Of a stretch of DNA of 64,000 nucleotides, positions 15,405-25,192 are shown in pieces. The position numbers were made by a program, and so were the translations under genes. Positions within the stretch are counted from its first letter, which is position 1; the number at the start of each line of letters is the position of its first letter. The notes beneath the pieces were generated by a model. The model made no database searches and was not told where the DNA came from. It saw only the letters and a program-made list of their open reading frames with translations. The stretch is from a virus, in the IMG/VR virus record IMGVR_UViG_3300017917_001194, positions 22,397-86,396 of that record. One strand, written 5' to 3'.

Positions 15405-15440
15405 TCTACCATATAAAAATACTCTTGTGTAAAAATGTTT

Positions 15441-15620
15441 TTATATGGTGGGACTGCTCGGATTCGAACCGAGACTCTTACCGGTTAAAAGCCGGATGTT
15501 TTGGCCAGTTAAACTACAATCCCTCATTTTCTCTTTACGTCGTAGAGCTTTGTTGCTCTTGCGGTGCGAGCCCGCCTTCCGTTTATTTGCTAGTACAGCA
15601 AATGGATTTCTTGGTTTCAT
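15441..15620 (-). CDS. small basic ORF reading through tRNA-Lys (candidate ArfA-like rescue factor)
   Basis: AAAGGAG RBS; MKPRNPFAVLANKRKAGSHRKSNKALRRKEKM then the whole tRNA-Lys in frame to TAA at 15441. Confidence 0.6.
   Translation of the reverse strand: MKPRNPFAVLANKRKAGSHRKSNKALRRKEKMRDCSLTGQNIRLLTGKSLGSNPSSPTI
15446..15523 (-). tRNA. tRNA-Lys(TTT)
   Basis: CCGG-CT TTT AA-CCGG, CCA. Confidence 0.9.
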
Positions 15621-15642
15621 TTTATTCTCCTTTGTTAAAAAT

Positions 15643-15717
15643 TGGCCCGCCGTGCAGGAATCGAACCCACATTCTAGAGGTAGAAGCTCTATGTCCTATC
15701 CATTGAACGAACGGCAG
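15643..15717 (-). tRNA. tRNA-Arg(TCT)
   Basis: TAGAG-CT TCT AC-CTCTA, CCA. Confidence 0.9.
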
Positions 15718-15722
15718 TTATT

Positions 15723-15817
15723 TGGTAGCAGATCTAGGATTTGAACCTAGCCGTTCCGGCCCATCTAGCCAGTCTCCAGAGTTTATAAGTCTCCGCCGCA
15801 CTCCAGTGCTATCTGCC
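15723..15817 (-). tRNA. atypical tRNA with TAT anticodon, tiny D-loop and long variable arm
   Basis: 7-bp acceptor GGCAGAT/ATCTGCT, D arm GCAC-TGGA-GTGC, loop CTTATAA, T arm CTAGG-TTCAAAT-CCTAG, ACCA. Confidence 0.75.
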
Positions 15818-15818
15818 T

Positions 15819-21175: not shown

Positions 21176-21199
21176 AAAAGGCCCAATTAAGGGCCTTTT
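21176..21199. terminator. bidirectional intrinsic terminator after tmRNA
   Basis: AAAAGGCCC-AATTAA-GGGCCTTTT. Confidence 0.8.
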
Positions 21200-21510
21200 G
21201 GTTGTTTCTGTTACGAGGTAAGTCCTACCCTAAGCAGTGATTAAACTGCTAAAGTTTGGCGTTGTGCTGTACGAGCAGAGAATTTAACGTTCTTACCTGA
21301 AACAGTTACTTCGCCTTTAGATGCGTTTGCATTTACATTTATTTGCTTGGATTACGTCCATCGCCTCTCGTGTTGTCTGCTACAATACTAATTCGCCCGT
21401 CGAGTCTAAATCAGGCCCCTCATAAACATTCTACTTAAAATGCTTATGGTGGACCTGGGGAGGCACTGCCCCTCCCGTCCGAACAACCTTTCTCTTCACT
21501 TCATACAACA
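21200..21510 (-). ncRNA. ssrA: circularly permuted two-piece tmRNA
   Basis: acceptor piece ends CAGGTCC-A-CCA at 21447; hairpin spacer; coding piece starts GGGCCTGATTTAGACTCGACGGG at 21418 (G3:U70); tag ORF 21241..21330; outer ends approximate. Confidence 0.85.
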
Positions 21511-21515
21511 ATTCT

Positions 21516-21719
21516 TTACTCTCTACCCCAATCAATATGTGTCCAAATTCTATCATAAATGTAGTACGAACAAGTCCATACTATGTTAATAATGATAGCA
21601 GGTAATATTGCTTGCGTAGTACTTTGTCCAGTGATCAACAACATTACATAGGTGCTTAGTATAACCCAGCATCTGTAGATTAAAGTTTTTACTAATGTTC
21701 GCTTTTTCGTATCTTTCAT
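21516..21719 (-). CDS. small membrane protein (DUF2061-like)
   Basis: RTLVKTLIYR...YYIYDRIW..I.WG. Confidence 0.7.
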   Translation of the reverse strand: MKDTKKRTLVKTLIYRCWVILSTYVMLLITGQSTTQAILPAIIINIVWTCSYYIYDRIWTHIDWGRE

Positions 21720-24431: not shown

Positions 24432-24507
24432 TGGTGGGCGGAGCAGGACTTGCACCCACACTCCCCGAATTATGAGTTCGACGCTTTACTGTTTAAGCTA
24501 TCCGCCC
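24432..24507 (-). tRNA. tRNA-CAT (probably Ile2/lysidine type)
   Basis: TCGAA-CT CAT AA-TTCGG, GGGC acceptor start, CCA. Confidence 0.82.
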
Positions 24508-25192
24508 TAAAACTATTGTTTCTAATTTGCTTAATTTCTTGTTCTTTGATTATACACAGTTTCTTAGGAAATTGCGACCATTTTGAACGATCTCTTTCTG
24601 TTTCATACCCCTTAACCTCTACATATAAGTTTAGTGATTCTATATAAAAGTCTGGAAAATATCTTCTGACACCGTTCCACTCATATTCGAATGATTCACT
24701 GGGTCTCTTTGGATCTAGTCCGTTTTCTTTTGCCCAGAGATAAAAATCAACCTCCCATTGACCCTGAAATTTTATACCATCTACAATTATTTGTTTTGTT
24801 CTTCCTCGATTTGATGATGTATATGCTTCAGGATTATTTTCCACTGCTTTTTTCATTGACAATCGATGTTTTTCTCTAATGGACTGATTTGCCCATTGTG
24901 TTTTATTTTGTTCTATAGTCGCTTGTCTTATTTTTGTTCTGCCACTGTCTGTTAAAACTTCCATTATTCTGTTAGGATTTTTTGGACATCGGCGTGTATG
25001 ATTACTCAATGCACTCTTTGTTTCGTATATTTTTTGACAATGAATACACGGAGTCGGAGGTATTATCGGATTTTTGAAATTAGATTTATTGTAAGACATA
25101 TCTAATCTAAGTGGATTTAAACTACAACGAATCTCGTGCTGTATTTTTGATTTCAGACTCTTTGCTGATTTTTGACAATATTGGCAGAACAT
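24470..25192 (-). CDS. putative homing endonuclease, zinc fingers + PD-(D/E)xK domain
   Basis: CxxC..H...C fingers; WE, YFPDFY...YVEVKG. Confidence 0.75.
   Translation of the reverse strand: MFCQYCQKSAKSLKSKIQHEIRCSLNPLRLDMSYNKSNFKNPIIPPTPCIHCQKIYETKSALSNHTRRCPKNPNRIMEVLTDSGRTKIRQATIEQNKTQWANQSIREKHRLSMKKAVENNPEAYTSSNRGRTKQIIVDGIKFQGQWEVDFYLWAKENGLDPKRPSESFEYEWNGVRRYFPDFYIESLNLYVEVKGYETERDRSKWSQFPKKLCIIKEQEIKQIRNNSFRADSLNSKASNS

Follow-up and report, generated by a model that had tools for sequence, protein, structure and literature searches.

The window analysed here, a stretch of 64,000 nucleotides taken from the 86-kb IMG/VR viral record IMGVR_UViG_3300017917_001194, carries on its minus strand a small open reading frame (ORF) that lies between two tRNA genes and runs without a stop codon up to the 5' end of a tRNA-Lys(UUU). 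The record is estimated to be 27% complete, and its relatives are phages of 160-350 kb. We found that the ORF is a genuine protein-coding gene, that it belongs to a large, undescribed and unnamed family of small basic proteins under purifying selection, that its bond with tRNA-Lys(UUU) has outlived much reshuffling of phage tRNA arrays, and that homologues in Burkholderiales recur directly downstream of the gene for RtcB. We tentatively propose, with somewhat less than even confidence, that the gene encodes an undescribed small protein of RNA damage or translation stress, and that in the phages the end of its message would be set by tRNA processing.

The ORF and its flanking tRNAs

Along the minus strand, tRNA-Arg(UCU) is followed by 22 nt containing AAAGGAG, the start codon ATG at 15620, 32 codons, a single base and then tRNA-Lys(UUU). 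Because the 3' end of tRNA-Arg is 22 nt from the start codon, the ORF occupies the inter-tRNA spacer. The elements of the locus are as follows.

15643..15717, minus strand: tRNA-Arg(UCU), the upstream neighbour (ARAGORN)
15627..15633, minus strand: Shine-Dalgarno-like AAAGGAG, 6 nt ahead of the start codon, as read in the sequence
15525..15620, minus strand: conserved 32-codon part of the small basic protein, with the core RN..[FL]..LA..[RK]KAGxHRKxNKALR[RK] (alignments A1-A3)
15524, minus strand: lone base left over after codon 32, ahead of the tRNA 5' end, which ARAGORN and Rfam place at 15523
15446..15523, minus strand: tRNA-Lys, anticodon UUU, with CCA encoded (ARAGORN; Rfam RF00005, 64 bits)
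15441..15443, minus strand: TAA, first in-frame stop of the read-through frame, directly past the CCA and giving a total of 59 aa
15408..15449, minus strand: long A/U-rich hairpin, beginning in the tRNA CCA end and spanning the read-through stop

The 32 codons from ATG 15620 to 15525 encode MKPRNPFAVLANKRKAGSHRKSNKALRRKEKM. The cloverleaf, the UUU anticodon and the 5' end at 15523 identify the downstream gene as tRNA-Lys(UUU), with ARAGORN and Rfam in agreement. An earlier reading of the window, made from the sequence only, had pointed to a strong ribosome-binding site and to a frame that stays open through the whole tRNA-Lys to a stop just after its CCA, and this was confirmed by re-reading, by ARAGORN and by Rfam. 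From the established function of RNase P, we infer that a cut is to be expected between 15524 and 15523.

The RNA of the ORF showed no unusual structure (folding z -1.64), and a promoter and terminator scan around it gave signals at shuffle level only. The hairpin at 15408..15449 has a folding z of -5.06, none of 200 shuffles folded as well, and the TAA sits in its 5' arm. By eye, inverted repeats of a like kind were noticed behind tRNA-Lys in three homologous loci (L027, L030 and L090).

A conserved gene of a large unnamed family

The 32-residue peptide was compared by tblastn with 80 loci that had been fetched via a neighbouring RNaseH-like gene, and two true homologues were obtained, in L027 and L030. 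Both copies are stop-less and directly ahead of tRNA-Lys, behind tRNA-Ala rather than tRNA-Arg. A degenerate DNA pattern for the core matched at least 120 viral stretches, which gave 123 motif sites and 84 unique ORFs among the matches listed, the window included. The ratio of nonsynonymous to synonymous polymorphism (pN/pS) was measured on the 11 codons upstream of the search pattern, which are hence unconstrained by the search. The pooled value was 0.38 in frame versus 0.90 and 1.57 off-frame, third-position entropy was about twice that of positions 1-2, and 74 of the 77 unique junctions had a Shine-Dalgarno-like motif no more than 20 nt from the start. A profile search (E<=0.01) brought the family to no fewer than 1,830 clusters at 90% identity, each of them 'hypothetical' or unnamed; at 50% identity the profile search gave 595 clusters. 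Since synonymous change recurs, a Shine-Dalgarno-like motif accompanies the junctions and the family is widely spread, the ORF is a genuine gene, as the earlier reading had supposed.

The family core can be written (P)RN-x-[FLV] ... [RK]-K-[AG]-G-x-H-[RK]-K-x-N-K-A-L-R, in proteins of 32-70 aa. The window peptide aligns with it over its full length and so belongs to this new small-protein family. PHROGs returned only weak matches, to entries of unknown function (E 0.015-0.075), and the ESM Atlas only the family's own 'hypothetical protein' clusters. Longer fused forms were represented by 43 matches, none with a Pfam domain, and the long forms inspected in divergent clusters turned out to be translations of tRNA-Lys read-through.

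A cultured phage, Acidovorax phage ACP17, carries an unannotated homologue (KY979132.2, 151742-151894, corresponding to 2501-2653 of locus L202). This copy has a stop, has no ATG ahead of the conserved part and no tRNA nearby, and begins where the gene before it stops, in a different frame.

The junction with tRNA-Lys(UUU)

Junctions were counted among the matches listed, with L001, a duplicate of the window, excluded and with ORFs running off their contig kept as a class of their own. Stop-less reading into tRNA-Lys(ttt) was found for 75 of the 84 unique phage ORFs. One of the remainder reads into tRNA-Arg(tct), three leave the contig and five stop before the next detected tRNA; in other words, 76 of the 81 unique copies complete on their contig have no stop ahead of the tRNA 5' end. 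One of the five early-stop types, present on four contigs (L090, 393-560, plus strand; L126; L131; L171), ends in an apparent truncated tRNA remnant. In the L090 type about 27 nt of a tRNA start are fused to ACCA, as though tRNA-Lys had been internally deleted.

The three frames relative to the tRNA are used 23, 23 and 31 times in 77 unique junctions, and among the homologues the first in-frame stop ranges from tRNA position 6 to position 126. As all frames are used and the stops are scattered, the read-through tails are not conserved. The conserved product is the part ahead of the tRNA, and the tails arise by accident. Among the homologues, 16 kinds of tRNA occur upstream and the downstream tRNA-Lys(UUU) stays constant, so that the bond between the two has persisted while the arrays were rearranged around it.

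The expectation of the earlier reading that homologues abut tRNA 5' ends without a stop is thus borne out by the phage copies and fails for the bacterial ones, which have ordinary stops and no tRNA. The same reading had RNase P leave a 32-codon non-stop message. The 32 codons are indeed stop-less up to the tRNA, and the cut itself would follow from established RNase P biology. A stop-less, tRNA-defined message end is best described as a conserved and mechanistically plausible arrangement that is not unique to this gene. In our literature searches, neither a conserved fusion of ORF and tRNA like this one nor an ORF fused to tRNA-Lys came up.

In the punctuation model of mitochondrial transcripts, excision of tRNAs sets the end of the adjoining coding RNA. 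The present arrangement would resemble this model, and ORFs in phage tRNA clusters, in that tRNA excision ends a coding RNA and genes are set tightly between tRNAs. It would differ from the mitochondrial case in that no polyadenylation completes the stop codon in bacteria, so that the cut message would be truly stop-less.

Other genes of the arrays end inside tRNAs

A simpler possibility is ordinary tight packing. The ORF would then be a normal small gene with its stop in or beyond the next tRNA, the protein would be made by read-through, and the stop-less fragment would be a by-product without regulatory meaning. As a control, other genes were examined in 215 loci (L002-L216 plus the window; L001 and L202 excluded) with 2,639 unique tRNA contexts. 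Among non-family ORFs of at least 60 codons, 68 run into a tRNA 5' end and 301 stop within 60 nt upstream of one, the gaps being mostly 0-8 nt. The genes that enter tRNAs include peptidase-like, phosphatase-like and HNH-like ones, and non-family ORFs often stop at the TAG formed by tRNA U8-A9-G10. The window itself holds an example.

24508-25192, minus strand: HNH-like ORF of 228 aa with a good Shine-Dalgarno sequence, start at 25192, reading stop-less into tRNA-Met
24432-24507, minus strand: tRNA-Met(cat), in which the HNH-like ORF meets its first stop at tRNA position 36

The family shares some of this behaviour. Its junctions stop at the universal U8-A9-G10 TAG in 30 of 83 cases, and its bacterial homologues end at ordinary stops, both of which would be expected from packing. 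In other respects the family departs from its neighbours: overlap with a tRNA is seen in 94% of family copies versus 18% of other genes, a stop is reached by tRNA position 13 in 33 of 83 family junctions versus 58 of 68 other genes, and 12 family junctions read beyond the whole tRNA. The roughly equal use of the three frames gives no sign of selection for an early stop, and it also speaks against packing that the downstream tRNA stayed fixed while the upstream tRNA changed many times. We consider packing alone rather unlikely, if a serious competitor. Reading into a tRNA had also been taken as a mark of ArfA-like gating. Because unrelated genes of the same arrays do the same, it is by itself no such mark.

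Bacterial homologues and the link to RtcB

A scan of genome contigs gave 14 loci, mostly from Burkholderiales. Two of them, in Achromobacter anxifer and Burkholderia aenigmatica (L217 and L222), lie in tRNA arrays and show the same tRNA-Lys junction; outside tRNA arrays the homologues are stand-alone ORFs of 50-68 aa. In an evenly drawn sample of 301 Burkholderiales genomes, 63 were positive with one match each, and the gene is a single-copy one of 47-70 codons with a normal stop. Contrary to what the earlier reading required, ordinary stops independent of tRNAs thus prevail in the cellular branch, at 10 of the 14 genome-contig loci and at all 12 loci inspected from the 301-genome sample.

RtcB is an RNA 3'-phosphate ligase, which seals breaks with 2',3'-cyclic phosphate and 5'-OH ends. 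It adjoined two bacterial copies in Pfam scans of their neighbours, and in the Burkholderiales sample an RtcB match stands upstream, on the same strand, of at least 10 of the 63 family genes. Measured between profile-match ends and not ORF ends, seven of the gaps were short (7, 11, 21, 41, 51, 66 and 71 nt) and three longer (732-1303 nt), among the matches listed. Under a crude binomial model, the chance of such adjacency is about 1e-25. The genes flanking the pair differ between genomes; the conserved unit is therefore RtcB plus the small gene.

4037-5392 in L246, 3702-5289 in L250, 3309-4917 in L251, and others: two-gene units in which the small basic gene comes 0-71 nt after that for RtcB, in unrelated Burkholderiales chromosomal contexts

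Occurrence of RtcB anywhere in the genome is also higher with the family gene (37 of 63 family-positive versus 99 of 238 family-negative genomes among the matches listed, p 0.016; these counts, like those for ArfB given below, were tallied by hand from match tables). In the phages, RtcB was found in one of 35 records only, 404 nt downstream of the ORF and 328 nt after tRNA-Lys, past two more tRNAs.

RtcB neighbourhoods have been tied to ribosome rescue after ribotoxin damage, and RtcB is paired there with the rescue factor PrfH (excerpts of PMC6514570). The bacterial homologues are like the PrfH-RtcB pairs in recurring directly downstream of the RtcB gene; unlike PrfH, the partner here is basic, of 47-97 aa, and has no release-factor domain. 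PrfH was present in 9 of the 301 genomes and never adjoined a family gene, which is uninformative. Literature searches returned no small RtcB-linked protein of this kind, although survey or supplement lists that we have not seen might contain one. tRNA-Lys(UUU) is a classic target of anticodon nucleases. Because of the RtcB adjacency, the RtcB-PrfH pairing elsewhere and this property of tRNA-Lys(UUU), a role in the response to RNA damage in translation is the best-supported functional lead.

The lysine content and the tRNA partner suggest yet another possibility, namely a Lys-rich leader peptide that senses the supply of Lys-tRNA and tunes maturation of the adjacent tRNA-Lys. The family has about 6.8 Lys per about 40 codons, its linkage to tRNA-Lys(UUU) is fixed, and DHDPS, dapF and aspartokinase genes occur near some bacterial copies. 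The invariant residues (N, A, G, H, R, N, A, L, R) are, however, for the most part not Lys, the Lys codons do not form a run, and the AAA share of 0.58 versus a background of 0.67 shows no Lys codon bias. Furthermore, bacterial copies have no neighbouring tRNA, and relatives that lack the ORF express tRNA-Lys from plain spacers. It thus seems very improbable that the peptide is a leader of this kind. The lysine-pathway genes (DHDPS-family, DAP epimerase, aspartokinase) were seen near the copies in L237, L238, L239, L233 and L250, and may reflect chance or one related subgroup.

Comparison with ArfA, BrfA and ArfT

The earlier reading had seen in the ORF a rescue factor like ArfA, BrfA or ArfT, made from a stop-less message produced by RNase P, and tagged by transfer-messenger RNA (tmRNA) and destroyed unless trans-translation is saturated. 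Kinship with these factors received no support. Pfam gave no match for the window peptide at E<=1 and none for 46 family members at E<=10, PF03889 included; PF03889 was not found in the phage record either, in a search whose E. coli control was positive. Alignment by hhalign of A2 with a Neisseria-type ArfA (L243, from a Burkholderiales-order genome) had a probability of 0.6%, BLASTP of the family against ArfA gave nothing at E<=100, and a profile of A1 had no match at E<=10 among all PDB chain sequences, which presumably include the ArfA and BrfA ribosome complexes. NCBIfam and Pfam likewise showed no matches. The sequence evidence thus does not support placing the family with ArfA, BrfA or ArfT, the last of which was compared through these libraries and not by a sequence of its own.

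Small rescue factors are described as having no shared sequence and as hard to find by homology (excerpts of PMC8012679 and PMC6299226). ArfT has 40 aa and the stretch KKGGSTNKK, and mature ArfA 52-55 aa and the stretch KGKGS (excerpts of PMC6299226). ArfA and BrfA carry a KH motif (excerpts of PMC8012679), and their basic C-terminal tail (KGKGS-type, KH) occupies the mRNA channel (excerpts of PMC6299226 and PMC8012679). BrfA, like ArfA, is made from a truncated message (excerpts of PMC8012679 and PMC6299226). arfT has an ordinary stop, so that a rescue factor need not come from a non-stop message (excerpts of PMC6299226).

Against this background the family is like ArfA in being small and basic and in having a basic, G-containing stretch with a neighbouring His; its phage message would likewise be stop-less after RNA processing and the product open to trans-translation. 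It is unlike ArfA in lacking detectable homology, in being shorter (32-42 aa) and in having cellular homologues with normal stops, and truncation would be brought about by a tRNA together with RNase P, whereas in arfA it is due to RNase III or a terminator hairpin. With ArfT it shares size and a KKGGSTNKK-like basic stretch, and with BrfA and ArfT the character of a sequence-unrelated small factor. It differs from these two in showing no similarity to them (PDB profile, NCBIfam, Pfam), and the stop of arfT is ordinary while the phage ORF is stop-less. In the [RK]KAGxHRKxNK segment, which is loosely like KGKGS and KKGGSTNKK, an invariant His beside basic residues recalls the KH motif. Within the invariant K-A-G-x-H-R-K, however, G is succeeded by a variable residue, and it is this residue, not a Lys, that precedes the His. 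The likeness to the ArfA and BrfA stretches is apparently one of resemblance only, in size, charge and a basic stretch.

Two copies without tRNA-Lys next to them (L085, 5926-6084, minus strand; L168, 4587-4766, plus strand) have a 16-bp hairpin over the ORF 3' end, with z of -4.2 and -6.1. The stem sequence is identical and the loops differ. These are two related sequences, and they recall the hairpin of arfA. The stop hairpins of L089 and L106 were not significant (z -0.85 and -0.57) and were dropped as evidence.

That the phage has its own tmRNA, as the earlier reading had stated, was upheld.

21197..21563, minus strand: two-piece (permuted) tmRNA (RF04321 match at 21510-21298, 98.4 bits against a gathering threshold of 47; RF01849, 54 bits)

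It lies 6 kb from the ORF on the same strand, and ARAGORN made no call for it. The tag read off the Rfam alignment is ANASKGEVTVSGKNVKFSARTAQRQTLAV, of 29 residues, ending in LAV. A permuted tmRNA was present in 28 of 34 related records, 27 of them above the family cut-off, and in all 19 near-complete ones; SmpB was found in none of 20 records. The tmRNA was likewise present in 9 of 9 near-complete records without the ORF, and so has no specific link to it. Since it is universal in the group, its co-occurrence with the ORF is uninformative.

On the cellular side, Burkholderiales hardly ever carry ArfA (3 of 301 genomes), and ArfB occurs somewhat less often with the family gene than without it (30 of 63 family-positive versus 148 of 238 family-negative genomes, p 0.044), a depletion that is weak and confounded by phylogeny. 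Together with the size and charge, the conserved stop-less junction, the two hairpins, the tmRNA of all near-complete relatives, the lack of SmpB in them and the pairing of RtcB with PrfH elsewhere, these counts are what a rescue factor would lead one to expect. Opposed to it are the missing sequence relation to ArfA and BrfA, the ordinary stops of tRNA-free bacterial homologues, the unrelated enzymes of the same arrays that read into tRNAs too, and the tmRNA of relatives without the ORF. We therefore regard an ArfA-, BrfA- or ArfT-like factor gated by tmRNA as improbable. Literature searches found no description of a phage Arf-like factor.

A proposed explanation

The explanation that we favour, although it may well prove wrong, is that of a small protein of RNA damage or translation stress. 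In Burkholderiales its gene is single-copy and often the second of an RtcB pair. In large freshwater phages the gene forms a fixed two-gene unit within tRNA arrays, the ORF with its Shine-Dalgarno sequence standing head-to-tail with tRNA-Lys(UUU), with no stop and no spacer. The whole array would yield a single precursor transcript. Should RNase P cut at the tRNA-Lys 5' end ahead of the ribosome, a stop-less message of 32-42 codons would result; the ribosome would stall at its 3' end, and the fate of the peptide would be set by rescue, which may tag it through tmRNA or release it without a tag. If the ribosome is ahead of RNase P, it would read into the tRNA as far as the first chance stop and add a non-conserved tail. 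The functional product would be the conserved N-terminal 32-42 residues. The data themselves bear out the gene, its conservation, the tRNA-Lys junction and the adjacency to RtcB, while the cleavage, the non-stop fate and the function of the peptide are what we infer. Its most likely role would be binding to the ribosome or to broken tRNA beside RtcB-type repair, in a response to RNA damage. A rescue-type or repair-linked function is possible, and ArfA-like rescue would be one specific possibility within it.

Several observations weigh against this explanation. The junctions are related by descent, so that they cannot each be counted as a separate event. Genes of these arrays generally may end inside a tRNA, as 68 of 369 long non-family ORFs do (18%), and the stop-less junction may be just tolerated packing. 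In many classes the read-through tail extends about 12-15 residues past ALRR, as in the bacterial proteins. Related phages that lack the ORF still possess tmRNA and tRNA-Lys(UUU), the latter preceded by short plain spacers. The RtcB link concerns a minority: at least 10 of the 63 bacterial copies show it, as does 1 of the 22 phage records that carry the ORF, and in 26 of the 63 family-positive genomes RtcB is absent altogether among the matches listed. Other neighbours recur as well (DHDPS, dapF, HlyD, gpsA). Finally, in four RNA runs metatranscriptome contigs covered tRNA parts only (90-99% likeness, from other organisms) and none covered the ORF, which is no evidence either way.

A bolder form of the proposal, which we think quite unlikely, sees in the family a novel class of small cofactors for translation rescue or RNA repair, working with RtcB and deployed by phages from a tRNA-punctuated, stop-less message. 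Such a cofactor would bind either to ribosomes that broken RNA has stalled, at their vacant decoding site or mRNA channel, or to nicked tRNA-Lys. The phages would field the peptide and a spare tRNA-Lys(UUU) against anticodon-nuclease defence, and the level of peptide would report RNase P processing versus trans-translation capacity.

Further observations

In the sequencing-run search, DNA runs hold the stretch, and RNA runs share only a small portion of its words. Upstream of tRNA-Arg, a 101-nt gap between tRNA-His and tRNA-Arg (15718-15818, minus strand) has no ARAGORN call. One metatranscriptome contig matches 15750-15814, inside this gap, with 2 differences.

Significance

Whatever the mechanism, the ORF belongs to a large unnamed small-protein family, with at least 1,830 clusters and a presence in about one fifth of the sampled Burkholderiales, and this family has two concrete links, to RtcB RNA repair and to tRNA-Lys(UUU). 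Because small rescue factors, according to reviews, are not findable by homology, a candidate based on context is useful. Annotators should be aware that gene callers mask ORFs such as this one or prolong them through tRNAs. If it is true that the tRNA boundary makes the message stop-less, this would be a new way to build an arfA-like, rescue-gated gene, and it would suggest why tRNA-rich phages all carry tmRNA, many array genes ending inside tRNAs. If the peptide is in addition a cofactor working with RtcB, it would represent a third independent invention of the control logic of arfA and brfA.

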